A DNA stretch of 32,000 nt from Hoyosella subflava DQS3-9A1. GTDB lineage: Bacteria > Actinomycetota > Actinomycetes > Mycobacteriales > Mycobacteriaceae. The notes under the pieces were generated by a model. The model was not told the DNA's origin. It was given only the letters and a program-made list of their open reading frames with translations, and did no database searches. Shown piece after piece: positions 6,701 to 27,422 of this stretch. The DNA is taken from NCBI RefSeq assembly GCF_000214175.1, contig NC_015561.1:74746-106745 (forward strand), written 5' to 3'. Position 1 is the stretch's first letter. Each line of letters opens with the position of its first letter. The translations under genes and the position numbers were made by a program.

Positions 6701-6735
6701 TCCGGCTTTCCCTATCGTGGCATTGCCTGGAGTGC

Positions 6736-8414: not shown

Positions 8415-8735
8415 ATGACGGAACAGGCAGAGAAGCGCACCTCGCCCGTCGCGCCGGCAACCGAGGGTAAGCTGCGTGAGGCGATGCGGCGACTCCTGAC
8501 CGGGACGGCGACCAAGACCGAGGGCCGCCTGACCAAGGCGAACCTGCACGTCGAGGCGGGGTCAGCCCGCCACCATGAACCGGGCAACGCAGATCACCGC
8601 CGAATGGGACGCCGCCGTCACCGACGCGGCGCCCCGAGAGGCTAAGTACACCAAGCTGGAGGAAGAGATCCAGACCCTCAGACGCACCGTCGCCCGACTC
8701 CGCGAGGAGAATTCGGCCCTGCAGAAGAAAACCAG
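8415..8735 (+). pseudogene. Frameshifted small HTH/coiled-coil gene remnant
   Basis: Frame 1 reads MTEQAEK...[17 protein letters not shown]. This continues sensibly only in another frame as (T)[15 protein letters not shown]...[26 protein letters not shown], a switch near 8571-8577 in the run ccgccacc. The second frame then runs without a stop into hsdM, which creates the artificial 932-aa ORF in the track. Confidence 0.3.
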
Positions 8736-8970
8736 GCCACGATGGCGGTGTTCGCCGACCAACGCGCCCAACTCCTCGCACTCCCAGAGCAGAAAAACCG
8801 ACAGAGTCGGTCGCAGTCCTGTGTGGCCATCGCCAGAAGCGGGAGCGCGGCGCGGCATGAGACCGCGATACAGCCCGCGACGCGACAGCGCAGGGCCGTG
8901 CCCCACACCCGGCCAACCACCACAGCGCGACACCTATACTTTAACGACCCTCACCAGCAAGGATTCCTCT

Positions 8971-11373: not shown

Positions 11374-12547
11374 CTGGCGGACGACCACACTAGGTGAGAT
11401 CGTCGACGTGCTCGATTCGCTGCGTTGTCCGATCAACTCAGAGGAACGAAGTAAGCGCCTCGGCGACGTGCCCTACTATGGGGCCAACGGTCAGCAAGGT
11501 TGGATCGACAAACCGCTATTCGACGAGCCGCTAATTCTGCTGGCCGAGGATGGTGGGAATTTCGACGATTATGCACGAAGGCCGATCGCGTATCGAATTA
11601 CTGGACCATCCTGGGTCAACAACCACGCCCATATCATTAGAGCCGTACGCGGAAATGATCAAAACTTCGTGTACTGGAGCCTAGTCCATCGCGATATCCG
11701 CCGGTTCATCTCGGGCGGTACACGAACCAAACTTACTCAAGCGGAAATGCGTTCGATCGAGCTCAAAATCCCCGAGTACGAGGAGCAGCGGCGGATCGCG
11801 GAGATCCTGGACACGCTGGACGACCAGATCCGCGCCACCGAGCAGATCATCGCGAAGCTCAAGCTTGCTCGGGCAGGACTAATGGCTGATTTGGTGGAGC
11901 GTGACGATCACCGGCATTCGGATCGACACTGCATCGCCGATTTGGTGGCACCAGGCCAGTTTGGATCTGCAATCGGTCCCTTTGGAAGTAATTTGGTAGC
12001 CTCCGACTATCGCAATTACGGAGTTCCCGTGGTCTTCGTCCGCGATATTCAATCCGGGGTATTCGATAGTAAAAGTCAAGTATTTGTTTCTCCGCGCAAG
12101 GCGCGCGAATTAAATTCCCATCGGACCGACCCGGGAGATGTGCTAGTTACCAAAATGGGCGATCCCCCAGGTACTGCGGCGCTTCACCCGGCAGATTTTC
12201 CTTCTGGCGTAATAACTGCGGACATAATTAGGATCCGTCCGAATGGCAATATTGTTCTCCCTGAATGGCTGGTTATGTACATAAACTCACTACCAGTCAA
12301 GCAGCAGATTGGAATGATTGCAGCCGGTGTGACCAGGCAAAAGCTCACCCTTGCCGACTTTCGAAAAGTCACAATTGCACTACCTGGCATTGATATACAA
12401 CATCAAGTAGCCGAGAGGGTCGCTTCCGCTGATCACCTAATCGCCCAAGAGAAATCCCGTCTTGAAAAGTCGCAGATACTCAAGGTGGGACTCATGTCGG
12501 ATCTGTTGGCAGGTCGAGTCCGTGTACCTCTGGAGGCTGCCTCGTGA
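11366..12547 (+). CDS. hsdS: Type I R-M specificity subunit HsdS (393 aa, two target-recognition domains)
   Basis: ATG 11366 overlaps the hsdM stop (ATGAGTGA) and lies behind GGAG. Two TRD-like halves are separated by the conserved helical spacer ...[43 protein letters not shown]... The second conserved helix reads ...[43 protein letters not shown]. The tracked start at 11306 lies inside hsdM and is not preferred. Confidence 0.9.
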
Positions 12548-15500
12548 CTTCCGGCGCCGAATACACGGAGTCCGAGAAGCCGCTACTGGATCAGCTGATC
12601 AGCCTTGGTTGGCTCCATATCGAAGGTTCGAAGTCCGATCCTGGTGTGACTGGCCGTGAGTCGTTTCGAGAGTCGCTCGTCGAAACGACTCTACGAAAAA
12701 TGTTGCGGCAGATTAACCTCGGACCCGACGGCGAGCCGTGGCTGGATGATTTGCGCCTGTCGGAAGCCGTCTCTACCTTGACGCGCACCGAAACGGGCAA
12801 GTTGATCGAGATCAACGAGCGCATGACTGATCGTTTGCTCGAAGGCGTCTCGGTGCCCGGGCTGCCCGATTGGGATCAGGGCCGCAACCAGCGTGTGAAG
12901 TTCATCGACTTCGATCATCCCGAACGAAACGACTTCCTCGCAGTTAATCAGTTCCGGGTCGATGAACCTGGCGGACAAGCCAAGAAGTTCGTTGTGCCGG
13001 ATGTCGTGCTGTTCGTCAATGGCATCCCACTGGTGGTGATCGAGTGCAAAAGCCCGTATGTCACCGACCGTATGGCGGCGGGCATCAATCAGCTGCGCCG
13101 CTACGCTAATCAGCGCGACCTGGGTGCTCCAGAAGGCAACGAGCGACTGTTCTGGACCAATCAGTTCGTTGTCTCGACCTACGGGGATAAAGCACGCGTC
13201 GGTACCTTCACTTCGGGGGCCGAGCACTTCCTGGAATGGAAGGACCCCGCACCGCTGAGCCGCGATCAACTGGCTAAGCAGCTCGGCAAGCCCACAGCGG
13301 AACTGACCGGGCAAGAACTCTTGGTTGCCGGAATGCTCACCCCAGTGAATCTGCTCGACATCGTTCGTCACTACACGCTGTTCACCGAGTTCGGTGGTAG
13401 ACGGGTCAAGCTGGTAGCTCGCTATCAGCAGTTCCGAGCCGTTAGCAAAGCACTCGTTCGTCTCCGCACCGGCAAAACCCGCAAAATTGACGGTGAGCAT
13501 GACCGTCGCGGTGGGCTGGTCTGGCATACCCAGGGGTCGGGCAAGTCCCTGACCATGGTGTTCCTGGTGCGTGCGATGCGGTCCGACCCCGCATTGCGAG
13601 CTTTCAAGGTTGTGATCATTACCGACCGTACTGACCTGGAAAAGCAGTTGGCCGCGACAGCCAAGCTGTCGGGCGAGGCGGTTCAGCGGGCCCGAAAGTC
13701 GTCCAAGCTGCGCACTATGTTGGCCGAGCACGGTCCCGCCCTGGTGTTCGCCATGATCCACAAGTACCGCGACACCGATGCCGCCAATTCCGATGAGGGG
13801 CTTGAGGGTGACGACAAGGCCGAGGCCTTTGGCGTACTTAACACCGATGAGTCGATCGTGATCATGGTCGATGAGGCGCACCGTTCCCAAACCTCCACCT
13901 TGCACGCCAACCTGATGGCGGCACTGCCGAACGCCGCCAAGATCGGCTTCACCGGTACACCGATCATGCGCGCTGGCAAGAAGCGCACCGAATCGGTCTT
14001 TGGTGAGTTCATCGACAAGTACACAATCCGCCAGGCAGAAGCCGACGGTGCAGTGGTCCCGATCTTCTACGAAGGGCGCACAGCAAAGGGTGCGGTGGCC
14101 GGCGGCAGTGACCTCGATGAATTGTTTGAGGATATGTTCGCCGAGCTCAGCGATGCTGAGGTCGAGGAGCTCAAGGCCCGCTACGCCACAACTGGGGCGG
14201 TGGTCGAAGCGCCCAAACTGATCGCAGCGAAGGCGAAGTCAATGCTGTGGCACTACGTCTCGACGGTCATGCCGAACGGATTCAAAGCGCAGGTCACCGC
14301 GTCGAGCCGACTCGCGACGGTGCGCTACCGCGAAGCGCTGATCGCTGCGCGCGACGACCTGGTCGCGCAGATTGAGGCACTGCCAGCCCCTCTGCTCAAC
14401 GCTGATGCAGACGTCGACCAGCTTGACCGCAAGACCCAAGTTCTCGTGCGAGCCGCTGACCAGTTAGAACTGCTCAAGGCACTTGAATTCGTTCCGGTGA
14501 TCTCGGGCAGCAACAACGACGATCCGACGTGGGCGCAGTGGACAGACAAATCACGCCAGGACGCGGTGATCGAGGACTTCAAAAAGAAGCTGGGGTTGCC
14601 CGGCGAGAAGGCCAGCCCGGTCGCATTCCTGATCGTGCGAACAATGCTGCTGACCGGATTCGATGCACCTATCGAGCAGGTTCTCTACCTTGACCGCTCA
14701 ATTCAAGACGCGGAACTATTACAGGCCATCGCCCGTGTGAACCGCACTGCCACCGGCAAATCCGTCGGACTGCTTGTCGATTATTACGGCGTCGGTGCGC
14801 ATCTACAAAAGGCGCTCAGGGCCTATGCGCCAGAAGATGCTGACGATGCGATCGGTGCGCTGGCATCGATCAAAGACGAACTGCCGAAGCTGCGTGACCG
14901 TCACGCACGGGTCATCGCGATCTTCGCTCAGGCTGGAATCGACACATTCGATACTGCACAGGACGTTGAGGCGTGTGTCGAGGTCTTAGCCGACGAGGCG
15001 CTCCGCGCTCGATTCGGTGTTCGGCTCAAGGAGTTCCTATCGACGATGGACACTGTCATGCCGCGTCCCGAGGCCCTGCCGTTCGTCAAGGATGCCAAGC
15101 GGTTAGGCGTCATCTCACTGGCGGCCAAACGGCGATACCGTGACGACGGGCTTGGTGACTTCGACAGCTCGCTATTCGGCGAGAAAGTGCGGAAGTTAAT
15201 CGACGAGCATGTCACCGCGCTTGATATTGCCACGAAAATCCCGCCGGTATCGATCACTGATCCCGACTTCCTCGCCAAGGTGCAGGGTCTTACGTCCGAG
15301 AAGGCCAAAGCCTCGGAGATGGAGCACGCGCTGCGGTACCACATTCGCAAGAATTTCGATGAGGACCCCGCCCGTTACACCAAGCTTTCCGAGCGGCTCG
15401 ACGACATCCTCAACACTCTCACCGGCAAGTGGGACCAGTTGGCCCTGGCGCTTACCGAACTCCTCGATGACGCGCAGGACGACAGCAGCGGCGGCGCCGT

Positions 15501-15816
15501 CCACGAAGACCCGCTGGTTGCGCGGTTCTACGGGTTGCTTGAAGCTGAGTTCGCCACCGATGCGACACTGCCCGACGAGGTGCGGATCGACATTGTTCAC
15601 CTCGCCCAGGACATCGTCGTCGAAATCGAACGAGGCGCGAGCATCGTGCGTTTCTGGCACAACCCGCACGCTCAGGACACACTGCGCAAACAGCTGATCC
15701 ACACACTTGATGACCGCGACCTGTTCCCGTTCGAGGAACAAGAGCCGCTGGCCGACAAGCTGATGGAACTCGCTAAGGCGAACCAGTCGTTGCTCACCTC
15801 CCGGAGGCGGCAATGA
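12544..15816 (+). CDS. hsdR: Type I R-M restriction/helicase subunit HsdR (1090 aa)
   Basis: GTG 12544 overlaps the hsdS stop (GTGA). Walker A GSGKS is at 13534-13548 (WHTQGSGKSLTMVF) and the DEAH box at 13870-13881 (MVDEAHRSQ). Later helicase motifs include ...LLTGFDAP... and ...QAIARVNR... Confidence 0.95.
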   Translation: MTSGAEYTESEKPLLDQLISLGWLHIEGSKSDPGVTGRESFRESLVETTLRKMLRQINLGPDGEPWLDDLRLSEAVSTLTRTETGKLIEINERMTDRLLEGVSVPGLPDWDQGRNQRVKFIDFDHPERNDFLAVNQFRVDEPGGQAKKFVVPDVVLFVNGIPLVVIECKSPYVTDRMAAGINQLRRYANQRDLGAPEGNERLFWTNQFVVSTYGDKARVGTFTSGAEHFLEWKDPAPLSRDQLAKQLGKPTAELTGQELLVAGMLTPVNLLDIVRHYTLFTEFGGRRVKLVARYQQFRAVSKALVRLRTGKTRKIDGEHDRRGGLVWHTQGSGKSLTMVFLVRAMRSDPALRAFKVVIITDRTDLEKQLAATAKLSGEAVQRARKSSKLRTMLAEHGPALVFAMIHKYRDTDAANSDEGLEGDDKAEAFGVLNTDESIVIMVDEAHRSQTSTLHANLMAALPNAAKIGFTGTPIMRAGKKRTESVFGEFIDKYTIRQAEADGAVVPIFYEGRTAKGAVAGGSDLDELFEDMFAELSDAEVEELKARYATTGAVVEAPKLIAAKAKSMLWHYVSTVMPNGFKAQVTASSRLATVRYREALIAARDDLVAQIEALPAPLLNADADVDQLDRKTQVLVRAADQLELLKALEFVPVISGSNNDDPTWAQWTDKSRQDAVIEDFKKKLGLPGEKASPVAFLIVRTMLLTGFDAPIEQVLYLDRSIQDAELLQAIARVNRTATGKSVGLLVDYYGVGAHLQKALRAYAPEDADDAIGALASIKDELPKLRDRHARVIAIFAQAGIDTFDTAQDVEACVEVLADEALRARFGVRLKEFLSTMDTVMPRPEALPFVKDAKRLGVISLAAKRRYRDDGLGDFDSSLFGEKVRKLIDEHVTALDIATKIPPVSITDPDFLAKVQGLTSEKAKASEMEHALRYHIRKNFDEDPARYTKLSERLDDILNTLTGKWDQLALALTELLDDAQDDSSGGAVHEDPLVARFYGLLEAEFATDATLPDEVRIDIVHLAQDIVVEIERGASIVRFWHNPHAQDTLRKQLIHTLDDRDLFPFEEQEPLADKLMELAKANQSLLTSRRRQ

Positions 15817-16541
15817 ACCCCGGCGTCATGACGCTGCGCCTCGACGGGATGTCCGTACCGGTCGACACCGGAGGCAGCAGCCGCAAAGCGAAGCTCACCA
15901 TCGACCGTGATGGCAGCCTGCGCCTGACCGCAGCCCCTGACGTGGAACGCGCTGAGCTGGAGCGATTTTTGGCCTCCAAGCGTGCATGGATCTACGGCAA
16001 GCTCGCCGAGAAGGAAGCTCATAGCCACACGCCCGTCACCAAGGAGTTGGTCAGCGGCGAGGGCTTCCTCTACCTCGGGCGCAGCTACCAACTCCGCATC
16101 ACCGACACCGATGATCACCGCGTGAGCCTGCGGCGCGGCAAGCTGATACTTCCGCGATCGCTCAGCGATTCCGGCCATCAGCACATCATCGCCTGGTATT
16201 GCACGACCGGCCTCGCATGGCTCAAACCGAGAGCCAAGGACTGGGCTGCCCGCCTCCGAGTCGACCCGCAAGCGGTCGAAGTCGCTGACCTCGGCAACAA
16301 GTGGGGAGCCGCACTCCCCAGCGGCCGTGTGCGCATCCACTGGGCAACAATGCAACTCCGCCCCACGCTGGTCGAGTACGTCCTCGCGCACGAACTAGCG
16401 CATCTTCGCGAAGCACATCATGGGCCTGCGTTTTGGCAGCTGCTCGGTCGGGTCATGCCTGACTATGACCAGCGCAAGAAGCAACTCGCCGACACGGGGG
16501 CTTCCTTGTGGCAAGGACATGCGGATCTCCGCAGCTCGTGA
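15813..16541 (+). CDS. YgjP/DUF45-type (M48-like) zinc metallopeptidase, 242 aa
   Basis: ATG 15813 overlaps the hsdR stop (ATGA). HELAH is at 16389-16403 within ...EYVLAHELAHLREAHHGPAFWQLL... This family is a frequent accessory gene downstream of type I hsdR. Confidence 0.8.
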   Translation: MNPGVMTLRLDGMSVPVDTGGSSRKAKLTIDRDGSLRLTAAPDVERAELERFLASKRAWIYGKLAEKEAHSHTPVTKELVSGEGFLYLGRSYQLRITDTDDHRVSLRRGKLILPRSLSDSGHQHIIAWYCTTGLAWLKPRAKDWAARLRVDPQAVEVADLGNKWGAALPSGRVRIHWATMQLRPTLVEYVLAHELAHLREAHHGPAFWQLLGRVMPDYDQRKKQLADTGASLWQGHADLRSS

Positions 16542-16651: not shown

Positions 16652-17146
16652 TTACCCATAGGTTGCAGCTAGCCCTAGAGCAGCAACACCGATGGGTGCG
16701 AGGCTCATCGATATTTGCACGGCCCGGTGCTTCGCCCAGGCGATCTTGCTCATGTCAACTAGCTGCTTTGACAGCACGGGCAGGATAGGGCTGTTCTCCA
16801 GGTGTGCTTGCACAGCGTCAGGCGTCAGTTCTCGCAGGTGCCCGAAGTAAATGAAGTTGTTCTGCGACTCTTTAGCGAGATTCGTCGATCGGAGTCGCGG
16901 GCGGACCACCCATGCTGCAGATGCGACCGCTGCTACAAGCAGCAAGACACCGATGACGTACCAGAACAGCGACCATCCGGTTAGATCGCTAAACACGCGG
17001 CCCTTGCTCGACAGCGCAACTACTCCGGCTAGAACGGCGCTCTCGATCGTTAGGGCGAACGATGCCTTCGTGTCCACTTTGCCGGTCCAGTCGATCAGTG
17101 CCGAGTGGATCCTCCAGCCGGTGCCAACCGGGTCGGAACTGCTCAT
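16652..17146 (-). CDS. pycTM: Pycsar-type small transmembrane effector (164 aa)
   Basis: ATG 17146 overlaps the cyclase stop (ATGA, 17143-17146); the tracked TTG 17158 is less likely. The N-terminus ...HSALIDWTGKVDTKASFALTIESAVLAGVVAL... has the D.KA-type start of the Pycsar effector family. Hydrophobic helices are at FALTIESAVLAGVVAL, LFWYVIGVLLLVAAVASAAWVV and ISMSLAPIGVAALGLAA. Confidence 0.65.
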   Translation of the reverse strand: MSSSDPVGTGWRIHSALIDWTGKVDTKASFALTIESAVLAGVVALSSKGRVFSDLTGWSLFWYVIGVLLLVAAVASAAWVVRPRLRSTNLAKESQNNFIYFGHLRELTPDAVQAHLENSPILPVLSKQLVDMSKIAWAKHRAVQISMSLAPIGVAALGLAATYG

Positions 17147-17874
17147 GAGAATTTCCAAGAGTAGCTGGTCCGGTAGTAGTCATAGTTCTTGCCACCCATT
17201 GTGAGTTGGCAGGTGCCTTTCCACATTTCTTTGCCGTCTGACAGTCGGTGCGATTGCGACAGTCTGCCGTAAGTCCCTTTACCGATTCGTGTGACATACC
17301 CGGCTGCTGCGTTCGCGCGAATGTCGCTCAGCTTGGCTGCTAGGTTGGGCGCTGGCCCGATCGAGATCATGTCATCACTGCCCCGAAACCCTGCGCGAGC
17401 AAGGAGAGTCTCGCCTGTGGCGATTCCGCTGCACTGTTTTAAGGTCCACCCGGCGGATTTGAGACTTGGAAACTCGGAGTGAACTGCAGGTGTGACAAGT
17501 TGGTCGACCGCCCACTTAATTCTCATGGCGGCTTTAACGGCACGGTCTTCCTTGTTTTCTCCCGTGAAGATGCCCATTACCCGATCGCCGTCGAAGCTTC
17601 GAATGTGACCTTCGTGAAAGCGCATGATCTTGGTGCTGACGTTGAGAAAACCTCGGAATACCCGTGCTGCCGCTTCCTTGTCGCCGATCGCGGCGAGACC
17701 CGAAGAGTTGAGCATGTCCGTGTAGAGGTACGTGGCAGAAACCAGCTTTCCCTCTGCAAAGCCCAGGTCGGTCGCCTCCGGCACTGAGGTGCTGGACTCC
17801 TGCTTCTTTGAAACAGACATCACCGGCTTGATCGTTTTGGCAATCTGCGCGTTTACATCGTCCAGCAAACCCAA
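17143..17874 (-). CDS. pycC: Pycsar-type class III nucleotidyl (pyrimidine) cyclase, 243 aa
   Basis: TTG 17874 lies 5 nt after GGAGG. Cyclase-homology features: ...VSATYLYTDMLNSSGLA... (first metal Asp), ...IRSFDGDRVMGIF... (second metal Asp) and ...CSGIATGETLLARAG......ISIGPAPNLAAKL... It is a small stand-alone cyclase directly coupled to a small TM protein, which is the Pycsar architecture. Confidence 0.7.
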   Translation of the reverse strand: MGLLDDVNAQIAKTIKPVMSVSKKQESSTSVPEATDLGFAEGKLVSATYLYTDMLNSSGLAAIGDKEAAARVFRGFLNVSTKIMRFHEGHIRSFDGDRVMGIFTGENKEDRAVKAAMRIKWAVDQLVTPAVHSEFPSLKSAGWTLKQCSGIATGETLLARAGFRGSDDMISIGPAPNLAAKLSDIRANAAAGYVTRIGKGTYGRLSQSHRLSDGKEMWKGTCQLTMGGKNYDYYRTSYSWKFS

Positions 17875-17998: not shown

Positions 17999-18661
17999 TC
18001 AGCCCAGGGTTTGTATCGCTTCTACGGCGAGGCTGGTTATCTGCTTGCCTGCCTCCGTTCCGGCCGATACGGCCACTGCGCTGATTGCAGTTGCCAGCAG
18101 TGCGCGCAGCGCGCCTTTCTTGGCGTGAGGGTCTTTCGATGCCTCGCGGAGTTCGGCCGCGACAACCTGAGCACTGCTTGAGTTAGGCTCGTTCGAGGCA
18201 ACATAGCCCTCAAGCGCTTCCACCACCGCCTGAATCTTGTCTGTCGCGCTTTCGAGACCGTGGGTTTGGCTAAAGTCTTGGCTGTTAACTGCGACGTTCG
18301 CTGGTCCGTGTGTGGTGATGTGGTAGTTGTTGGTCGCTCCCGTTGTGTTCGCTTGTTGTGGGGGATCGGGACAAACGGACAGCCCAGAGGCGACCTGGTT
18401 TTCGCCTCGCGAAGTGATGCGGGGACGTAGTACTCCACCGCCCCATACACCTGCGCCGGCAACAAGGCCCTGGTCCTTCAGATAGTCAAGTGCTGCGTTC
18501 ACTTCTGGCTCAGTGATCGGGTCGGCCCGCCACTTTGCGGTGGTCTGAATGGAATTGCGATCAATATTCTGGGGAGCGTTATTGCCCTGAGCTTTCTCTT
18601 CGTACAACCAGAGCAGCAGGGCATCGCGAATGCTCCACATCCGATCAGCGACTGGACTCAT
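17999..18661 (-). CDS. Hypothetical protein, N-terminal winged-helix-like region (220 aa)
   Basis: The ORF track gives 17999..18724. ATG 18661 lies 5 nt after a strong GGAGGGAAAG and is preferred. N-terminus is MSPVADRMWSIRDALLLWLYEEK......VNAALDYLKDQGLV...ITSRGENQV. The middle is low-complexity and the C-terminus is Ala-rich and helical. It sits 125 nt upstream of pycC on the same strand. Confidence 0.6.
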   Translation of the reverse strand: MSPVADRMWSIRDALLLWLYEEKAQGNNAPQNIDRNSIQTTAKWRADPITEPEVNAALDYLKDQGLVAGAGVWGGGVLRPRITSRGENQVASGLSVCPDPPQQANTTGATNNYHITTHGPANVAVNSQDFSQTHGLESATDKIQAVVEALEGYVASNEPNSSSAQVVAAELREASKDPHAKKGALRALLATAISAVAVSAGTEAGKQITSLAVEAIQTLG

Positions 18662-19035
18662 TCGGACTTTCCCTCCATATTTTCGAGCGGTCGTGAAAGC
18701 AACGCTACGGGCGACGACGGACATGTTCTGACCTGAGTTAGCTCATTTCGTTAGTGCGTGAGTTCACGAAGCTGAAGGCCGGTCGATCAACACCTGGGTG
18801 TCGGCGTCGATGTCGGGCGAGAAGGTGTGCCGCTGACCGCGATAGGACCGAATCTGCCGATAAGGGGCAACCCTATTCGGAGGCTACCGAAGCTGCATCG
18901 GCTGGCGTGATAGTCGCGTCGACCGAGCCCTGGAGTGAGCCTGAATGCAACCGAAGGGAAAGAACCTAGCTGGACCCAGGATTCGGCTAGCTCGGCAGTC
19001 ATGCAACAACGAAGCTAGACCACGAGACGAGTCCG

Positions 19036-20100: not shown

Positions 20101-20946
20101 GCCACTGTCACGTTGTTTGCGGAACTTGGCGATTCGAGCCCGTTGGCCGATTTTGCGGGTGGGTGATCGCGGTCGGATGGGTGCCGGTCAGCCGACGGTA
20201 GCCTGCCCGGTGATCTCGGTCCAGACGGCGAAGCGGTCGGCCATCACCTGTCGGTATTCGGTCGCCGAGAGCCGGTGGCGGCGGGTCCGGAAATGCGGTG
20301 AAATTCCCGAGAAAGCGGACAGGAAGCGTTGCGCGTGCCCGGGTGAGGTGAACCGTTTCATCGCCCGCTCCCGGGCGCGGGTCGGTTGATGGGAATTCTC
20401 GGCCCGGTTGTTGAGGTAGCGTGATCGGCGGTGCTCGGCCGACGACACCACCTCGCGGTGCGCCACCTGGTAGCTGCCCAGCTTGTCGGTGATGATCACC
20501 CGCGGCACGTATCGCAGGCCCTTGAGCAGCTTGCGGAAGAACCGCTTGGCCGCCACCGCGTTTCGGCGGGACTGGACCAGCACATCGAGCACGTTGCCGT
20601 CCTGGTCGACCGCGCGCCACAGGTAGTGCTGGGTGCCATTGATGCGGATGAAGACCTCGTCGAGGTACCACTTGTCACCGGGCCGCGCCCGCCGTCGGCG
20701 CAGCTGATTGGCGTAGGCCTGCCCGAACTTGGCGCACCACCGCCGGATCGTCTCGTAGCTGACCACGACACCGCGTTCGAGGATCATCTCCTCGACCTCA
20801 CGGAAGCTGAGCGGGAACCGGAAGTACAACCACACGCAGTGGTTGATGATCTCGCCCGGGTAGCGGTGTCCCTTGTATGACGGCATTGCGGTGTTCACCC
20901 CACGGATCTTCCCAGCGGCCGCGCAGCCCACCAACGTGACAGTGCC
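20101..20946 (-). mobile_element. IS6-family insertion sequence, complete (846 bp)
   Basis: Left end is GCCACTGTCACGTTG... (20101-). The reverse complement of the right end is GGCACTGTCACGTTG... (20946-). That gives about 15-bp IRs (14/15), resembling the GGCACTGTTGCAAA ends of IS26-type elements as I recall them. A single 232-aa transposase lies inside. The flanking octamers differ (TCCGAAAT vs GATATCCC), so there is no target duplication. Confidence 0.85.
20188..20886 (-). CDS. IS6-family DDE transposase (232 aa)
   Basis: MPSYKGHRYPGEIINHCVWLYFRFPLSFREVEEMILERGVVVSYETIRRWCAKFGQAYANQLRRRR.RPGDKWYLDEVFIRING...YLWRAVDQDGNVLD.LV.SRR...AAKRFFRKLLK.....PRVIITDKL.SY...H.........HR.S.YLNNRAENSHQPTR.RER.MK.F.S...AQRFLSAFSGISPHF is the IS6100/IS26-type sequence. 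The tracked ORF (to 21330) extends 148 codons upstream beyond the IR and is not part of the gene. Confidence 0.9.
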   Translation of the reverse strand: MPSYKGHRYPGEIINHCVWLYFRFPLSFREVEEMILERGVVVSYETIRRWCAKFGQAYANQLRRRRARPGDKWYLDEVFIRINGTQHYLWRAVDQDGNVLDVLVQSRRNAVAAKRFFRKLLKGLRYVPRVIITDKLGSYQVAHREVVSSAEHRRSRYLNNRAENSHQPTRARERAMKRFTSPGHAQRFLSAFSGISPHFRTRRHRLSATEYRQVMADRFAVWTEITGQATVG

Positions 20947-21180
20947 GATATCCCCCAGCCAAAACGGCTGCGACACGATGCCGACCACCGAGGCGTCGAA
21001 GTCCAACGCCCCGGCGAGAACCGACACAGCCCTGCCGCCCCCTCGGCGCCGCGGGTGCCGATCGAGGTCGACGGCGGGGAGGTGCCGTGCTGGGCCACAC
21101 CAGGGCCAGCGCGTTGCGGGCAGCGAGGTCGTCGATGCGGTACCTTTCTGCGCCAGCAGCCCGAACGAGGCCGTACTCAT
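20947..21180 (-). pseudogene. Possible 5' remnant of a TnsA-like (Tn7-type) transposition gene, truncated by the IS6 insertion
   Basis: Reading into the IS6 right end: MSTASFGLLAQKG...RAVSVLAGALDFDASVVGIVSQPFWLGDIG|IS6. The LDFD..VVgi.sQPFWL block recalls the N-terminal domain of TnsA-like endonucleases as I remember them. It breaks exactly at the IS boundary. Confidence 0.25.
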
Positions 21181-21440
21181 CTTCTTGCGGCCGGGCTGGT
21201 GGTGTTGTGTCGCTGGTTGGTCTTCGCCGACAGGCTGCTGCGGCGTCTCTTCGTCCTGGTCACGGAGATCATCTCCCCGGTTTCCCGCATAGATTTTTAC
21301 CCTCTGGTGGTTAGCTATGCGAGTCACCAAAATCTTGATCGCTGATTTAAGAACTTACCTTGATGTTTAAGGTGTTGCGGCGTAGTTTAGGGGTCTGTCT
21401 TAAGTCGATAAGATCTAAACTAACGTGATAGGAAGTAACC

Positions 21441-22724
21441 GTGAGCATCACCATTGACCCGCTACGGCTCTCCAAGCCGATCTCCAGCAGCACCTACCTG
21501 GCCATGAGGACAGTCCAGGGCGGCCGCGTCGTCTACTCGACCCGCGTTCCGTTGCTCGATTTGCCTACGATCCTGCCGGTCCCCGACCCGAACGTGGTCG
21601 ACAAGGACAACCGCAAGGTTGACCGCAATCACGCCAAGCAGTTCGGCAAGTACCTCGACGACAAGGAGGAATGGCTGGCCCCGGCCCTCCTTGCTCGGGA
21701 CAACGGCGGCTGTGTCTTCGAGAACGTCCAGGGATCCGACGACGTCGGCTACCTCACCGTCCCGTGGGCGATCGGCGGCGTCGCCTGCCTGTCCACCATC
21801 GACGGTCAGCACCGCGTGTTGGGCGTGGATCTCGAGAAGAGGCGCATCACCAGCGACATCGCCCTCGTCGACCGCAGCATGGCGCGCAAGATCTCCGCGG
21901 AGCGGATGGAGAAGCTGCAAGCCGACCGCGAAAAGCTCGTCGCCCAGATCGGGCGGCTGAAGAGGGAGTACGTTGGCCTGGACATCTACGTCGAACTGGA
22001 CCCGATCAAGCACCGGCAGATGTTCGTCGACGTCGCCGACAACGCCAAGGGCATCAGCAGCGCCGTCCGCGCCCGCTTCGACAACTACAAGGTCGCCAAC
22101 CGCACCCTGGGCGACGTCATGGAACACCCGCTGCTGAAGGGGTGGGTCGACCCCGAACAGGACCGGATGACCCAGAGGAACCCGAACCTGTTGGGCGCCA
22201 AGCATGTCGCCGATATCACTCGGGCCGTCGTCGCCGGAGCCGGTGGCCGGATCAGCAAGAAGGCCGAATCCACGCTGACCGACGCCGAGGTGATCGAACA
22301 GGTCAAGGACTTCCTCGACGTTCTCTCCAACGCCTTCGTCGACTTCGCCACTCTCACGGAAGCCGACCCCGTGGCGGACCGGGAGAGATGGGACGACGGC
22401 AAGGGGGAGCTGACCACGGCCCAGAAGCTGCGCCGCAAGTCGCTGCTCGGCTCGGTGGGTATGCTGCGCGTCCTGGGCGGGGTGTTTCACGACCTGAGGT
22501 CCGGGGATCCGGACACGGCCGATCTCGGCGACGTCACGATGTTCTTCAAGCGCCTCGATCGCCACATGGCCGCCCCGGTCACGGAGACCAGCGTCTGGCG
22601 GACCAGCAACGCGTCCGATGACTTCGAGCCGAATGCGTCTGCGCCGATCATGCGTACCCAGAACATCGTGCACCTGGTGAACGCCATCGTCGGCTGGTAC
22701 AAGAAGCCGCCGACCACACTGTAG
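21441..22724 (+). CDS. DGQHR-domain protein (DndB-like, ParB/Srx-fold), orphan, 427 aa
   Basis: GTG 21441 lies 5 nt after AGGAAG. ...ACLSTIDGQHRVLG... places DGQHR at 21801-21815. Downstream, ...KHRQMFVDVADNAKGIS... fits the Q.F.D.N block of DndB-like proteins. No dndACDE, ssp or dpd genes are anywhere in the window. Confidence 0.8.
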   Translation: MSITIDPLRLSKPISSSTYLAMRTVQGGRVVYSTRVPLLDLPTILPVPDPNVVDKDNRKVDRNHAKQFGKYLDDKEEWLAPALLARDNGGCVFENVQGSDDVGYLTVPWAIGGVACLSTIDGQHRVLGVDLEKRRITSDIALVDRSMARKISAERMEKLQADREKLVAQIGRLKREYVGLDIYVELDPIKHRQMFVDVADNAKGISSAVRARFDNYKVANRTLGDVMEHPLLKGWVDPEQDRMTQRNPNLLGAKHVADITRAVVAGAGGRISKKAESTLTDAEVIEQVKDFLDVLSNAFVDFATLTEADPVADRERWDDGKGELTTAQKLRRKSLLGSVGMLRVLGGVFHDLRSGDPDTADLGDVTMFFKRLDRHMAAPVTETSVWRTSNASDDFEPNASAPIMRTQNIVHLVNAIVGWYKKPPTTL

Positions 22725-22940
22725 GAGGGACACTGCGACCGGTACCGCAGCCCGCGGTGCCCGGTCTCCGTGCAATCGAAGGTGATGATGCAACTGTGCG
22801 GGAACGACGACGGCGGCCGCCGAGTCGGCGCCGACCTTGTGTGCGAATGCGTGGACCGAACTTGGCCACCCGGGTCTGCATGTCTGTGCGTGCGGCGAAT
22901 CGTGGCCCGGATCACCGGGCACGCCCGCCGGGCTTCCTCA

Positions 22941-22986: not shown

Positions 22987-23194
22987 CTTCCCGGTGCGCG
23001 AATCCACAGCAGCGCTGCGCCCACTGCGAGATCCCGCAGCCGACAACGACCAGCCATGACAACGGCACCGTCTCGTGAATGTGCACGTGGTTGACGCATC
23101 CGCAGGGGCGATCTTCCCGCCCCCCGAGGTACCGGTGTCGTGGCGCGCGCCTCCTAGGTGTTCAAATGTAGTCACTTGTAATACATTTAGTTCT

Positions 23195-23500
23195 GTGGCG
23201 GAACTCTTCGATCTGGACCTCCTCGATGGAGACGACCCGTTCGAGATCGATGTTCAAGCCGCGCACCTGTTCAAACATCCCCGCTTGGGCATCGCGGACA
23301 TCCACGAGGTCTGGGCATCCGACCCCATGTTTTATCCCGCGAAACTGCCCGCGCACTGGCTGATGGTCGCCGAGGTCCACGGCCAGGTCCTCATGGTCCC
23401 CCTCGCCCCAACCCGGGACGCGAACCCCGCCAAATGCCGCCCCATCGGCTGCTACCAGGCATCCAACCACCTCGCCGACCAGTACCGGAGAGACCGATGA
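23195..23500 (+). CDS. Putative toxin, BrnT(DUF497)-like (101 aa)
   Basis: In-frame GTG 23195 is preferred over the tracked 23075 start. ...DPFEIDVQAAHLFKHPRLGIADIHEVWASDPMFYPA....WLMVAEVHGQVLMVPLAP........RPIGCYQAS... resembles the FEWD...hL.KH.v...e.eevf.dp......r....g...gr.L.Vv......iRiIsar layout of BrnT. Its stop overlaps the start of an RHH gene (ATGA). The family call comes from pattern memory only. Confidence 0.45.
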   Translation: MAELFDLDLLDGDDPFEIDVQAAHLFKHPRLGIADIHEVWASDPMFYPAKLPAHWLMVAEVHGQVLMVPLAPTRDANPAKCRPIGCYQASNHLADQYRRDR

Positions 23501-23718
23501 ACCAGCCCATGACCCCCGACGAGGAATACGACTTCTACGCCCGCCCAGAGAACCAGGAACCGCAAGGCCCCGGGCAACGTCGGCTGACCGCCACCGTGCC
23601 GGTCCGCTTCCCAGCCGACCTACTCGAGAAGATCCGCGCAGCAGCCGCTGCCGACGACCGGTCCGTCTCGGCCTGGATTCGACGCGCCGTCGAGCACGAG
23701 CTCCGCGATTCCGCCTAA
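23497..23718 (+). CDS. Ribbon-helix-helix (CopG/BrnA-like) antitoxin (73 aa)
   Basis: ATG 23497 overlaps the upstream stop. The C-terminal ...RRLTATVPVRFPADLLEKIRAAAAADDRSVSAWIRRAVEHEL... is a classic RHH beta-strand plus two helices. Confidence 0.7.
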   Translation: MNQPMTPDEEYDFYARPENQEPQGPGQRRLTATVPVRFPADLLEKIRAAAAADDRSVSAWIRRAVEHELRDSA

Positions 23719-23958: not shown

Positions 23959-24579
23959 ATGCCACACAACACCCTGCCGACTCTGGGTTCCGATAGAGTT
24001 CTGCGGGTGGGGCACAACATCGGGTACGCGCGGATCTCCACCGCTGATCAGAACCCGCAGCTGCAGCTCGACGCGCTCGGCGCCGCGGACTGCCTCAAGG
24101 TCTACACCGACACCGCGACCGGCACCAAAGCCGACCGCCCACAGTGGAACGCCTGCCTGGCCGACCTTCGCCCCGGCGACACTCTGATCATCTGGAAAAT
24201 CGACAGGCTCGGCCGCAACCTTCGCGACCTGATCGACATCGTGACCAGCCTGCAGACCCGCGGCGTCGGGGTCCGCTCACTGACTAACGGGATCGTGGAC
24301 ACCACCACCGCTCACGGCAAACTCGTCTTCGGCATGTTCGCCCTCATGGCCGAGTACGAGGCAGCCCTCATCAAAGAACGCACCGATGCCGGGCTGGCCG
24401 CCGCTCGCGCCCGAGGCCGCAAAGGCGGGCGCAAAGCGAAAATGACCCCCGCCCTGATCAACAAAGCCCAGCGCATGTACGACGCCCGCCAGTTCACCAT
24501 GACCGAAATCGCCCAGACCTGCGGAGTCACACCGATGACGATCTACAGACACATCAAAACCCGCGCCGCCGCGAACTGA
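23959..24579 (+). CDS. Serine recombinase (resolvase/invertase family), 190-206 aa
   Basis: ...IGYARISTADQNPQLQLDAL......VYTDTATGTKADRPQW...L..LRPGDTLIIWKIDRLGRNLRDLIDIV..L...GV..RSL...IDTTT..GKL.F.MFA..AEYE...IKERT.AGL.AAR.RGR.GGR. is followed by a C-terminal HTH (TMTEIAQTCGVTPMTIYRHI). The start may be GTG 24007, just before IGYARIST. Confidence 0.9.
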   Translation: MPHNTLPTLGSDRVLRVGHNIGYARISTADQNPQLQLDALGAADCLKVYTDTATGTKADRPQWNACLADLRPGDTLIIWKIDRLGRNLRDLIDIVTSLQTRGVGVRSLTNGIVDTTTAHGKLVFGMFALMAEYEAALIKERTDAGLAAARARGRKGGRKAKMTPALINKAQRMYDARQFTMTEIAQTCGVTPMTIYRHIKTRAAAN

Positions 24580-25287: not shown

Positions 25288-26457
25288 TTAGACCAGCTTC
25301 AGCTCGGGCCGGGTGTCACCCTGGCCCAGTAGTAGACGCAGTCTGGGGAGGTTTATCCGGAGCTCGGCGGCAAGCTCTTTGAGCGTCAGTCCGGTCGACT
25401 CGGCCATTTCCAATGCTGAACGGAGTAAGGCCGGTATCTCGCCTGGATAGCCTTGGACCGATTCGTTGACGAACAGTCCCGACGATCTGAGGGTTGCGAG
25501 TCGCTGATGGGCGCGCCGGTAGGTGGCTTCGGAGACTGCGCCGACTTCCTTACATCGGCGTAGGAGAGACTCGACTGACACGCCCCACTGCACGCTCAAC
25601 TCACCGAGTTTCTCGAAATCCAGCCGTAGCGGCAGTAGTGGCGTGATCTCCGCTCGCGGGGTCAGGAACTCTGCGGCGAACGCGTCAGCTTCTCGCTCTT
25701 GCCGTGCATCTCCGGGAAGACAGTCGCTGTGCATCAGCAAGTGCCCCAACTCGTGTGCGGCAGTAAAGCGATGGCGATACACGTCATCCGCTCGATCAGG
25801 CGTGAGTACCACGATGGGTCGTGGCAGCTTCGATGTGGAGAATGCATCGATGTTCTTGGTTGCATTACCGGCGAACGGTGCGAGCGTGACGACGATGCCG
25901 TGCTGCTCCATCATGCGGACCATGCGACTGATCCGGCCTGTGCCCAGCCCCCAATGCTGACGAAGTGCCTGTGCTGCTGTAGTGGGGTCAGTTGGGAAGT
26001 CGGTCTGTTCGACCTCGCCGGCGGAGAATCCGGGTAAATCGATTGCGGGGAATCGGACTCGCTTCTCCAGAGCGTAGGTTAGCTCCCAGACCTGTTCGGT
26101 GAATGAAACAGCTTTGTCCCTCTGGCTAACCGGGGTTCGTCGCAGGCTTCGGAAGTGCGCATCAGCGGCATCCAGACGTGCATACGGGCGACCGGCGGCG
26201 AGGAAGGCGATCGGGACGTCGAGAACCTGAGCGAGCGCCTCGATGTTGTCCGGTCGTGGTTTTGCCGTGCCGGCTTCCCACTGGCCGACGGCGACGGCGG
26301 AAACCCCGAGCTGATCTGCAAGGGCCTTCTTCGTCGCACCGGCAAGACGGCGAGCCTGTGTCAGCCTCGCCGAATCGAAGGCACCGCCGCTAAGCTCTTC
26401 TCCCACCAGATCCGTGTCCGGCACGAGATAAAGCTGACCCGACTCACGCTTACTCAA
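25288..26457 (-). CDS. Fused XRE-family HTH / ImmA-IrrE (COG2856-type) zinc metallopeptidase, 389 aa
   Basis: The N-terminal HTH is ...LTQARRLAGATKKALADQLGVSAVAVGQWEAGTAKPRPDNIEALAQVLDVPIAFL. The peptidase core is ...RFTAAHELGHLLMH...EREADAFAAEFLTP, with HELGH at nt 25741-25755. TTG 26457 overlaps the stop of the upstream gene (TTGA). Confidence 0.85.
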   Translation of the reverse strand: MSKRESGQLYLVPDTDLVGEELSGGAFDSARLTQARRLAGATKKALADQLGVSAVAVGQWEAGTAKPRPDNIEALAQVLDVPIAFLAAGRPYARLDAADAHFRSLRRTPVSQRDKAVSFTEQVWELTYALEKRVRFPAIDLPGFSAGEVEQTDFPTDPTTAAQALRQHWGLGTGRISRMVRMMEQHGIVVTLAPFAGNATKNIDAFSTSKLPRPIVVLTPDRADDVYRHRFTAAHELGHLLMHSDCLPGDARQEREADAFAAEFLTPRAEITPLLPLRLDFEKLGELSVQWGVSVESLLRRCKEVGAVSEATYRRAHQRLATLRSSGLFVNESVQGYPGEIPALLRSALEMAESTGLTLKELAAELRINLPRLRLLLGQGDTRPELKLV

Positions 26458-27269
26458 CTGTCCTCGCTACCCGTGTTCTGTTCATCAGCGTCCTGCTGCT
26501 CCTCCGAGGAGACCTGTTCGTCCGGGCTGCGTATGGACAGATCGAACCCATTTTCGTGCTCGGCGTCCGCGTCGAACCGATCGAGGGACTTGTCATCGTG
26601 GCCGATCACTTTCAGTGTCGGGGCGATTGTTTCGAGGTTCTTTATCGAGTACGGACCTCGGGTCCATGCCAGCTCGCCGGTGTCTTCGTTTACCAGTTCC
26701 GCGTCACCCCAGCCGAAATCGAAAAGACCGTCCGGGGAGGCAGATACCCAGAGCATTACCGTGCGGCCCTTTGCACGTGACATCTGCTCTCGGAACTGCT
26801 CGTCCTCGATGAAATGCTGCTCAAGTTCCTCCTCGGTCATCATTGCGTGCTCGAACGTCATTTGAGGTTCGGCGGACGACGGAGAGAGCGTCATCAGGTG
26901 CGCCTGCAGGCGCGAGGTCTTCCGGAGTTTTGCCTCGGAAATGGGCGTCTTGCCATCGCCGGGCACGCGCCACCAGTACAGGACGACGCCGGTTTGCTGG
27001 ATTACAGGGAGGTCGAACCGGGTGTGTTGCCCCTCGGGCTTAGCAGCTATGATGCCGGGTACACCTTTGAGTTCCCTGAGTAGACCGCGATTCAGATTTA
27101 CACGCAGGGCATTCGAGTAGGCGTCCCGGTCGGGCCAGCCCTGCTCGACATGTGCGCGCAGGGCTGCATCCTGAGCCTCGTTAACTGTCTTGATAAACGC
27201 GTTTCGGATGAACGGAGCGGCGTCGCCAAAACGTTCGATTTCATAGTCGGAAAACTCAGTATGTCTCAA
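26454..27269 (-). CDS. Hypothetical protein with a strongly acidic C-terminal tail (271 aa)
   Basis: ORF track. TTG 27269 lies 4 nt after GGTGG. I recognise no motif. The C-terminus reads ...DADAEHENGFDLSIRSPDEQVSSEEQQDADEQNTGSEDS. It is translationally coupled to the XRE-ImmA gene. Confidence 0.7.
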   Translation of the reverse strand: MRHTEFSDYEIERFGDAAPFIRNAFIKTVNEAQDAALRAHVEQGWPDRDAYSNALRVNLNRGLLRELKGVPGIIAAKPEGQHTRFDLPVIQQTGVVLYWWRVPGDGKTPISEAKLRKTSRLQAHLMTLSPSSAEPQMTFEHAMMTEEELEQHFIEDEQFREQMSRAKGRTVMLWVSASPDGLFDFGWGDAELVNEDTGELAWTRGPYSIKNLETIAPTLKVIGHDDKSLDRFDADAEHENGFDLSIRSPDEQVSSEEQQDADEQNTGSEDS

Positions 27270-27422
27270 CTTTCCACCCCTACAGGCTTAGTTGATCCAC
27301 CCACTCGGGGAGGTTTACTTTACTTTATCACACAATTCGATCACTACGTCGGCATTCCAGTTCGGGATTCGGGCTAGCCCTACGACCTGGCAGTCCTGTC
27401 CGATTAGACATCGCCTAGATGT

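Follow-up and report, generated by a model that had tools for sequence, protein, structure and literature searches.

Two overlapping genes on a Hoyosella subflava DQS3-9A1 plasmid raise the question of whether an unannotated acidic protein, here termed T, is a toxin held in check by the fused regulator-protease encoded immediately downstream, here termed A. The window analysed comprises 32,000 nucleotides of a 106.8-kb replicon, which is a plasmid by its locus tags. The initial annotation, made from the sequence alone, had proposed a new effector or toxin controlled by proteolysis or repression. RosmerTA is a widespread defence and toxin-antitoxin system in which one HTH-protease antitoxin controls many unrelated toxins. 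Our results make it probable that the T-A pair is a RosmerTA-type two-gene toxin-antitoxin or abortive-infection module, carried on a plasmid within a defence island.

Results and discussion

Gene organization and translational coupling

The open reading frames and the sequence confirm a minus-strand pair of 271 and 389 aa joined by a TTGA overlap at 26454-26457. The principal features are as follows.

26454..27269, minus strand: T gene, 271 aa, pI 4.7, putative toxin/effector that resembles RmrT in its position only (GenBank AEF43159.1 / WP_013798166.1 by exact look-up, annotated as 'hypothetical protein')
25288..26457, minus strand: A gene, 389 aa, RmrA-type, putative antitoxin/regulator/protease (RefSeq WP_148262673.1)
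26454..26465, minus strand: coupling junction GAGGAcagTTGA, read from the sequence, with the A Shine-Dalgarno within T codons E-D-S
27290..27344, minus strand: non-coding stretch conserved across 7 aligned loci, the remainder of whose flanks cannot be aligned; putative operon promoter and candidate operator
27344-27335, minus strand: conserved box GTGATCGAAT upstream of T
27330-27322, minus strand: conserved extended -10-like element TGnTAAAGT upstream of T
27297-27290, minus strand: conserved box GATCAACT upstream of T

In the 4-nt overlap, A starts with TTG (26457-26455) and T stops with TGA (26456-26454), and a GAGGA Shine-Dalgarno for A (26465-26461) is embedded in the final codons of T. 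Because the codons GAG GAC form the ribosome-binding site of A, the acidity of the last T residues is partly dual-coded. The junction GAGGA-n3-TTGA is identical in 7 close loci, and more distant loci carry ATG-overlap or short-gap variants. For T, a TTG invariant in the 7 loci is the sole start past the in-frame TAA at 27290-27288. An older GenBank annotation of A (AEF43158.1, 378 aa) is 11 residues shorter than the RefSeq protein, and its start we read as the GTG codon of V12; both the junction found in the 7 close loci and the conservation of residues 1-13 at the protein level support the 389-aa TTG start.

Dozens of homologues, together with purifying selection (dN/dS of 0.13-0.25 for T and 0.07-0.08 for A), indicate that both ORFs are genuine genes, T evolving 2-3 times faster than A. 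The order T then A, the genes overlapping or lying no more than 91 nt apart, holds in 17 of 18 loci, the A call being frameshifted in the remaining one (L010). As in RosmerTA, T and A are two adjacent, co-oriented genes of one operon.

A conserved promoter-like region is found 5' of T only. As a sigma-70 consensus scan upstream of T detected no promoter, this call is one that we infer. No palindromic operator was found upstream of T, nor was there a conserved hairpin in the leader, for which RNAalifold gave a consensus of only -1.13 kcal/mol with several pairs broken.

A is a clear member of the RmrA family

The domains and motifs of A are arranged along the protein as follows.

26419..26436, minus strand: motif Q8-L-Y-L-V-P13 near the N-terminus, in the clade-specific extension (residues 1-26) ahead of the HTH
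26200..26358, minus strand: XRE/Cro-C1-type helix-turn-helix, residues 34-86 (Pfam HTH_3 6.8e-13, HTH_31 4e-11)
26140..26160, minus strand: linker A100-H-F-R-S-L-R106 between HTH and peptidase, invariant in 18/18 A proteins
25549..25908, minus strand: M78 / ImmA-IrrE zinc-peptidase domain, residues 184-303 (Pfam Peptidase_M78 5.7e-20)
25291..25548, minus strand: C-terminal region, residues 304-389, conserved with many invariant residues and inside the RmrA model

The Pfam matches bear out the description of A as an XRE-type HTH fused to an ImmA/IrrE peptidase. Against the PADLOC RmrA model PDLC03955, residues 25-388 align with model positions 18-369 of 371 (E 1.9e-92), and 13 other PADLOC RmrA models also match (14 in total). 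PHROGs returned phrog_2439 (3.6e-72), while the NCBIfam spr1629 antitoxin family matched residues 29-369 (8.7e-30). The HELGH reported at nt 25741-25755 is intact as H235-E-L-G-H239, and a downstream motif, EREADAFAAEFLTP, holds E254, E256 and D258. These three residues and H235, E236 and H239 are invariant across 18 homologues, so the metal/catalytic motif is preserved. The full-length PADLOC match, the HTH_3 and Peptidase_M78 domains and the invariant metal-site residues mark A as a clear RmrA family member at the sequence level. One detail of the initial annotation needs revision: the stretch beyond the M78 envelope is not some 130 residues but 86 (304-389), and it belongs to the RmrA model. 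Within it, residues 344-374 are weakly HTH-like (sub-threshold Pfam matches to Sigma70_r4, HTH_25 and Xre-like-HTH).

Two segments of A differ from its phage relatives. The N-terminal motif, which lies outside the PADLOC RmrA model, reads Q-L-x-L-[L/F/I/P] in 15/18 partner A proteins, mis-annotated starts included, with the exact QxxLF forms QLELF, QPSLF and QPPLF among them; it is absent from phage RmrA homologues that have a different partner family. The same homologues read AHMRRQK or AHMRRLK where A has its invariant AHFRSLR linker. Self-cleavage at the S-L-R of this linker, modelled on the cut that IrrE makes in DdrO at L106/R107, is for this reason kept only as a weak idea.

T is a predicted soluble protein whose fold has no detectable relatives

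The following parts of T were delimited on an AlphaFold2 model built from a 77-sequence alignment and on the conservation of its columns.

26640..27269, minus strand: folded core, residues 1-210 (AlphaFold2 model)
26850..26864, minus strand: loop motif Q136-M-T-F-E (column counts, 77 sequences)
26457..26639, minus strand: disordered C-terminal tail, residues 211-271 (pLDDT 44-70)

The model has a mean pLDDT of 83, with most of the core above 90 and lower values around 131-140 and 151-170. In the core, a long helical hairpin (8-43, 49-67) is followed by three strands (73-102), helices (120-165) and a three-stranded sheet (169-208). The loop motif has the family consensus Q-L-[TS]-[LIF]-[DE], with an acidic residue at position 5 in most members and F/W there in 11/77; it is preceded by a P/S/T/A-rich linker of variable length and lies in a region of low pLDDT. 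The tail contains the conserved motifs R231-F-D233 (nt 26571-26579) and L244-x-x-R247-x-P, and then the acidic stretch SPDEQVSSEEQQDADEQNTGSEDS, the very acidic ending that had been noticed from the sequence. Across the T family, 65% of tails have a net charge of -4 or lower. No transmembrane or hydrophobic segment was found in T, read here as a soluble acidic protein whose fold is without detectable relatives.

That T carries no recognized motif is upheld by searches of Pfam, NCBIfam, PHROGs and PADLOC (RmrT models included), none of which produced a match. The 77 family members gave only scattered, chance-level matches to the same four libraries; a single member matched the RmrT model PDLC03937 at E 0.0052, chance level for so many scans, and no member matched an NCBIfam toxin family. 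A sequence-profile search of the PDB with T returned nothing. The Foldseek check suggested by the initial annotation gave no significant match in the PDB or BFVD (best E 0.19, TM <=0.31), and no recognizable catalytic residues are conserved throughout the T family.

Three candidate identities for T were set aside. The D...(D/E)xK set of a PD-(D/E)xK nuclease is not conserved family-wide, the equivalent strand reading L-Y-P-W-R. EspG, the label on the UniRef cluster of homologue P0015, found no support: scanning all 77 members against Pfam (E <= 0.1) gave no EspG family, and no EspG chain is among the best 50 PDB fold matches of T. Homology to a partner family of approximately 205 aa (T2), encoded beside two phage RmrA homologues, was rejected, as hmmsearch returned nothing and the hhalign probability was 1.9%. 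As side observations, the weak Foldseek lists (PDB and BFVD, best E 0.19) are enriched for PD-(D/E)xK-type folds, with SfsA, EcoRV, Hjc, BglI and viral PD-(D/E)xK proteins at the top; P0015 is a hypothetical protein at NCBI; and T2, which adjoins the RmrA homologues of Gordonia phage BBQValindra (gp34) and Mycobacterium prophage prophiGD44-1 (gp28), resembled T by eye.

T and A are strictly linked and mobile

The T family comprises approximately 106 clusters at 50% identity, all of them from Actinomycetota. In 18/18 loci examined, 6 of which were retrieved through A alone and not T, a T-family protein is encoded directly upstream of an HTH+M78 gene (A2 profile, E 1e-29 to 1e-102). Linkage of T homologues to XRE-ImmA genes, on which the initial proposal had been staked, is strict and reciprocal. 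Pairwise identities of T and A correlate (r = 0.93). The flanking genes, on the other hand, differ between loci, with no gene set conserved beside the pair across the 18, and the T-A pair therefore moves as a unit. In several loci an integrase or recombinase gene is found no more than a few kb away. One locus has decayed, T having been lost through an IS3 insertion and A being truncated but kept, and truncated T variants occur in strains of Prescottella equi; both are indirect hints that T may be toxic.

The pair was described as lying next to Gabija in a defence island, and indeed GajA (2e-190) and GajB (1.2e-176) adjoin it. The window also holds Pycsar, a type I R-M system and AbiJ-like and PD-T7-3-like genes, with a resolvase and IS elements close to the pair. 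Elsewhere, defence-associated proteins are frequently encoded in the flanks: TIR, STAND NTPases, SIR2, Abi, Gabija, PLD and a restriction endonuclease. Plasmids carrying the A gene or the pair account for 22 records and make up most records with the pair, which also occurs on chromosome-size contigs of P. equi (5.2 Mb) and Aeromicrobium (3.7 Mb). T was sought in phages (IMG/VR patterns, INPHARED) and none was found. T-family accessions were not found in the NetFlax supplementary files examined.

A proposed mechanism and its alternatives

By analogy with RosmerTA, Kita RmrTA and RipAB, we infer the toxicity of T, its neutralization by A, a role in phage defence and any bond cut by the peptidase. 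A single conserved promoter upstream of T would drive transcription of both genes, and translational coupling would keep T and A in a fixed ratio, with the XRE HTH of A probably autorepressing the operon. In uninfected cells, A, as an RmrA-type antitoxin, would hold T harmless. Phage infection or another stress would alter the state of A: its zinc peptidase might be activated and cut A itself or the conserved tail of T or, alternatively, A might be titrated away or degraded. T would then be released and growth stopped. Counting against such a module, T itself has no feature that points to a toxin.

The preponderance of plasmid records is as compatible with plasmid addiction as with defence. 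The same T/A logic could serve post-segregational killing that stabilizes plasmids or islands, a reading consistent with the 22 plasmid records, the 106.8-kb plasmid replicon and the nearby resolvase and IS elements. Nevertheless, the pair is also found on the chromosome-size contigs of P. equi and Aeromicrobium, and defence genes recurrently adjoin it; we consider addiction in place of phage defence unlikely. The two roles are compatible. The repressor-type HTH and ImmA/IrrE-type protease of A, the integrases or recombinases in several loci and a strongly acidic T (pI 4.7) without a toxin signature would also suit a regulatory switch of a mobile element, comparable to ImmR/ImmA or IrrE/DdrO, with A as a repressor cleaved under stress and T as an accessory that is not toxic, such as an anti-repressor, a sensor or co-regulated cargo (for example, a DNA-mimic-like acidic protein). 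This seems quite improbable, given that no regulated gene set is conserved and the flanks differ in every locus, that searches of phage genomes and viral contigs did not turn up T and that the experimentally studied relatives of A are antitoxins.

It is very unlikely that the roles are reversed, with the COG2856 protease A as the harmful component and T as its inhibitor or sensor. Such an assignment draws on a 2009 comparative-genomic prediction for Xre-COG2856 pairs (PMC2701414) and on a Brucella ZnMP/HTH-Xre study (PMC10538038), and the faster evolution of T is what might be expected of a phage-exposed sensor. However, the RosmerTA protease gene is undeletable and that of RipAB is essential only with its partner gene present, which together argue that the protease protein is the protective component; fusion of A to its own HTH is, moreover, the usual antitoxin/autorepressor layout. 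A toxin under a fused regulator-protease is the supported and, by analogy, the expected reading of the pair. The named precedents (RosmerTA, Kita RmrTA and RipAB), which the initial annotation had missed, make that reading expected and the finding less novel.

A possible connection to the sliding clamp

A more speculative, and on balance doubtful, extension of the RosmerTA-type module would place its action at the replication sliding clamp. The clamp-binding motif has the consensus QL[S/D]LF / QxxLF (PMC12309361), read here as Q first, L fourth and F/L fifth within an exposed, flexible segment. Compared with it, the N-terminus of A reads Q-L-x-L-[L/F/I/P] in 15 of 18 proteins, and position 5 of the T loop is mostly acidic, F/W occurring in 11 of 77. 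The N-terminal Q-L-x-L-[L/F] of A and the Q-L-T-L loop of T would be putative clamp-binding-type motifs; T might poison DnaN or its partners, as the toxins RipA (a Rosmer toxin) and SocB do, A might compete for or guard the pocket, and the RFD...LxxRxP tail of T might be a handle held or cut by the A peptidase. If so, T would represent a further Rosmer toxin family, independent of the first, that targets the clamp (DnaN), and the module would be a soluble, structurally tractable model for RmrA-type control of unrelated toxins. Should the motifs be non-functional, the locus becomes one more member, by architecture, of a described system. The soluble T family, with its confidently modelled core and with conserved motifs in disordered segments of both T and A, offers a practical system for studying T-A recognition and peptidase cuts.

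Comparison with known systems

The HTH plus M78 protease logic of A recalls CapH/CapP, which control the defence operon of CBASS. Unlike in CapH/CapP, the two parts are fused and not encoded by two genes, and the PADLOC matches of A (capP, 1.2e-15, residues 222-306; capH, 2.2e-5, residues 30-103) are partial and far weaker than those to RmrA. There are no CBASS genes next to the pair, the neighbours being Gabija and the resolvase, and this assignment was rejected. ImmR/ImmA of ICEBs1 and DdrO/IrrE of Deinococcus likewise combine an XRE repressor with a COG2856/M78 metalloprotease that cleaves the repressor under stress. In A, by contrast, the HTH and protease form one polypeptide, a third, unrelated protein (T) travels along and the pair is without an associated regulon or integration module; with no conserved neighbours in 18 loci, a system of this kind was also rejected.

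RipAB (Spr1630/Spr1629) of Streptococcus pneumoniae is a closer parallel. RipB (spr1629) neutralizes RipA, and the protease gene is essential only with the partner gene present (PMC12795458). Like T-A, RipAB is a Rosmer-family pair with the same gene order and an XRE + ImmA-like antitoxin, although the match of A to the spr1629 family is far under the cut-off (104 vs 335 bits). The RmrTA pair of Gordonia phage Kita (NetFlax D25/D5) defends against phage and illustrates the partner promiscuity of RmrA (PMC10440598). Its toxin is membrane-localized and depolarizes the membrane (PMC10440598), in contrast to T, which has no hydrophobic segment. The RmrA homologues retrieved from Gordonia and Mycobacterium phages are only approximately 30% identical to A, and the T2 family, which neighbours two of these, shows no homology to T.

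[quoted passage not shown] RmrA partners are diverse, unrelated toxins, and the order is toxin-first in 58%. The present locus shares with RosmerTA the two-gene operon, a Zn-peptidase protein as the putative antitoxin, a partner of unknown function and the defence-island setting. It departs from RosmerTA in that T matches none of the RmrT profiles and A carries the clade-specific N-terminal extension, with Q-L-x-L-[L/F], outside the RmrA model. As published RmrT proteins are diverse and of unknown function, the lack of an RmrT match lowers the case for a known RmrT and not that for a Rosmer-like pair. PADLOC-style rules that require both components would probably miss this locus and, as the profile libraries overlook the T partner family, a tool requiring RmrT and RmrA probably skips such Actinomycetota loci. 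The architecture of the pair already bears the name RosmerTA; what is new is T, an unannotated partner family restricted to Actinobacteria.

A probable RosmerTA-type gene pair

The minus-strand pair formed by T, a 271-aa putative toxin, and A, a 389-aa putative antitoxin, is best read as a RosmerTA-type module.

Features of the pair (all minus strand)
26454..27269: T, 271-aa ORF; AEF43159.1 / WP_013798166.1, annotated 'hypothetical protein' (exact-sequence match)
25288..26457: A, 389-aa ORF; WP_148262673.1, annotated 'XRE family transcriptional regulator'
26465-26454: T/A junction GAGGAcagTTGA; Shine-Dalgarno within T's last codons, TTG start of A overlapping TGA stop of T
A residues 34-86: HTH_3 (Pfam)
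A residues 184-303: Peptidase_M78 (Pfam)
A residues 235-239, nt 25741-25755: HELGH (sequence)

Both ORFs and the TTG/TGA overlap are seen in the sequence, as the initial annotation had described for a coupled pair, and the ribosome-binding site of A shares codons with the end of T's acidic tail. An older annotation of A, at 378 aa, is 11 residues shorter; the 389-aa TTG start is favoured because seven close loci have the same junction and residues 1-13 are conserved. Both genes are under purifying selection, with dN/dS values against three homologous loci of 0.13-0.25 for T and 0.07-0.08 for A. Judging by the locus tag AS9A_P20114, the 106.8-kb carrier replicon is a plasmid.

The Pfam domains and HELGH motif agree with the earlier description of A as an XRE-HTH fused to an ImmA/IrrE-type peptidase. 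PADLOC places it in RmrA, the RosmerTA antitoxin: the best RmrA model matches residues 25-388 (E 1.9e-92) and 13 more RmrA models match, while capP and capH matches are partial and much weaker. The NCBIfam 'spr1629 family repressor/antitoxin' aligns with residues 29-369, scoring under the family cut-off, and PHROG 2439 matches over the full length. In 18 partner-linked homologues there is no variation at the HExxH residues, the E254/E256/D258 motif, the AHFRSLR linker (residues 100-106) or across much of the final 86 residues, so the peptidase looks active. A solved 393-aa 'HTH cro/C1-type domain-containing protein', PDB 9vzy_A, has weak two-segment similarity to A (25291-26457, minus; E 2.2e-5) and the same order of HTH then peptidase; among experimental structures it may be the one closest to RmrA-type proteins, and a literature search found no paper on it.

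In front of T, seven loci that cannot otherwise be aligned have in common GTGATCGAAT, TGnTAAAGT (which resembles an extended -10 element) and GATCAACT, all at fixed spacing from an invariant TTG start. We take this conserved region to be the putative operon promoter, with the boxes as candidate operators for A's HTH. Scans of it for a sigma-70 consensus and for palindromes were negative, and a putative leader hairpin found no support.

Linkage and mobility

The claim that T homologues are linked to XRE-ImmA genes held throughout our sample, drawn from three reference genomes, nine plasmid records and several assemblies and metagenome contigs: a T-family gene (profile E-values 1e-29 to 1e-102) lies directly upstream of an HTH+M78 gene in 18/18 loci with readable downstream sequence. 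The linkage is reciprocal, since six of the 18 were reached only via their similarity to A. Identity to the window proteins spans 18-91% for T and 48-96% for A, and the divergence of the two correlates across all 153 locus pairs (r = 0.93). The T family extends over Mycobacteriales, Streptomyces, Arthrobacter, Cryobacterium and Aeromicrobium. Because the flanking genes differ at each locus, the pair is an autonomous module.

Comparison loci
L017, Cryobacterium sp. MDB2-10, 1-2174: distant T-A copy with a Gabija pair (GajA-like and UvrD-like) a few kb away; also PLDc_2, DUF6602 and Tn7-like TniB genes
L013, Rhodococcus sp. WAY2 plasmid pRWAY02, 2774-5023: decayed module; IS3 transposase in T's place, A 5'-truncated to 338 aa, SIR2-family gene adjoining
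L010, MAG GCA_963555895.1, 5150-6378: A gene split by a frameshift between HTH and peptidase

The L010 frameshift, which marks a pseudogene or else comes from faulty assembly, led the gene caller to give only a 332-aa M78 protein.

Defence context

The window is a defence island, and the pair does lie next to Gabija, as first noted: Gabija is immediately upstream and divergent, and Pycsar, type I R-M and others are present.

Defence genes in the window
16652-17874, minus: Pycsar; PycC cyclase 17143-17874 (PADLOC 1.2e-65) overlapping the start of PycTM effector 16652-17158 (2.4e-46)
8575-16541, plus: type I R-M operon; HsdM, HsdS, HsdR (1090 aa), YgjP-like metallopeptidase
6736-7584, minus: Abi_C/AbiJ-like gene, 282 aa, adjoining a 466-aa gene (both in 5300-7584)

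HsdM, at 932 aa, has ~140 extra N-terminal residues ahead of HsdM_N, and the YgjP-like gene (15813-16541) is translationally coupled within the operon. The N-terminal 170 residues of the 466-aa protein match PADLOC PD-T7-3 (2.7e-18); it and its AbiJ-like neighbour may form a further defence pair. Transposases and a resolvase lie scattered among these genes and a DndB-like gene. The 241-aa ORF at 17999-18724, close upstream of Pycsar, has no Pfam or PADLOC match. Elsewhere, the neighbours of T-A include TIR, STAND NTPase, SIR2, Abi, PLD, restriction endonuclease and again Gabija, whose proximity recurs, through L017, in another order of Actinomycetota.

The DndB-like gene (Pfam 2.2e-25; 21441-22724, plus) adjoins an IS240-type DDE transposase (20188-21330, minus), with no other dnd genes seen; a long antisense ORF without matches (21462-22922) is probably an artefact of high GC content. 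Two small overlapping ORFs (141 and 94 aa; 23075-23718, plus) precede the resolvase (23959-24579) and match nothing in Pfam, PADLOC or PDB sequences; by eye, the 94-aa product, with C-terminus …VRFPADLLEKIRAAAAADDRSVSAWIRRAVEHEL, looks like a ribbon-helix-helix antitoxin.

The T family

As the initial annotation had it, T bears no recognizable motif: the single sequence has no match in Pfam, PADLOC (including RmrT models), NCBIfam or PHROGs. Searching these libraries with 77 diverse members, and PDB sequences with the family profile, gave scattered chance-level matches only. Word-indexed search retrieved just 18 relatives (56-91% identity), of which those with names come from Rhodococcus, Prescottella and Nocardia; exhaustive profile search yielded 106 clusters at 50% identity, almost all of 240-285 aa.

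The AlphaFold2 model (77-sequence alignment; mean pLDDT 83, residues 11-210 mostly >90) predicts a core that combines a long hairpin of helices with a three-stranded meander, other helices and another sheet of three strands; residues 211-271 are disordered. Foldseek found no significant match in PDB or BFVD. PD-(D/E)xK nucleases head the weak lists, but with E >=0.19 and TM <=0.31, and their catalytic acidic/lysine set is not conserved in the family; we rejected this assignment. T is acidic (pI 4.7), and no hydrophobic segment was found. The best-conserved positions are G15, Y51, G52, R101, S119, Q136, V171, W187-G188 and W202, with R231-F-D233 and L244-x-x-R247-x-P in the tail. The very acidic tail remarked upon earlier is frequent without being universal: in 65% of members the last 30 residues have a net charge of -4 or lower.

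The phage RmrA homologues that we examined lack the N-terminal extension of T-partnered A proteins and pair with an unrelated ~205-aa family (hhalign probability of homology to T, 1.9%).

Partner plus RmrA-type gene in phages
L022, 1902-3565: Gordonia phage BBQValindra gp34-gp33
L023, 1793-3520: Mycobacterium prophage prophiGD44-1 gp28-gp29

This family, with 168 matches in Mycobacterium, Gordonia, Amycolatopsis and Gordonia phages, likewise has a strongly acidic tail, its final 30 residues carrying a median net charge of -8. Such tails may be a recurring trait of partners of this RmrA lineage.

Clamp-binding-like motifs

The extension of T-partnered A proteins beyond the RmrA model carries Q-L-x-L-[L/F/I/P] in 15/18, some in exact QxxLF form. 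In two loci it is encoded ahead of the annotated start.

A homologues with an upstream motif
L014, 3894-3990: GQLSLL in frame, upstream of RefSeq start
L018, 2394-2454: the same

Both RefSeq starts appear too far downstream. T has Q136-L-[TS]-[LIF]-[DE] in a low-confidence loop after a variable linker, position 5 being F/W in 11/77. The clamp-binding consensus is QL[S/D]LF or QxxLF (PMC12309361); the resemblance of both motifs is suggestive only, and T's fifth position usually disagrees.

Comparison with known systems

In RosmerTA the antitoxin is a Zn-peptidase gene whose deletion was not obtainable, and the toxin's function is unknown (Millman et al. 2022). RmrA is a promiscuous hub whose partners are unrelated toxins, with toxin-first order in 58%. 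RmrTA of Gordonia phage Kita confers phage defence in E. coli (PMC10440598), and RipB (Spr1629) neutralises RipA, which binds the DnaN hydrophobic pocket and depends on ClpX (PMC12795458). By analogy, A would repress the operon and neutralise T, a trigger would lift this control, plausibly via A's peptidase, and released T would halt growth.

The proposal that T could be a new effector or toxin controlled by a fused regulator-protease is supported, although the architecture is already known as RosmerTA. What is new is a partner family unrecognized by current libraries and for which PDB and BFVD yielded no structural relatives, together with the clade-specific N-terminal motif of A. The Rosmer toxin RipA already targets the DnaN pocket, whose binding consensus the motifs of A and T resemble.
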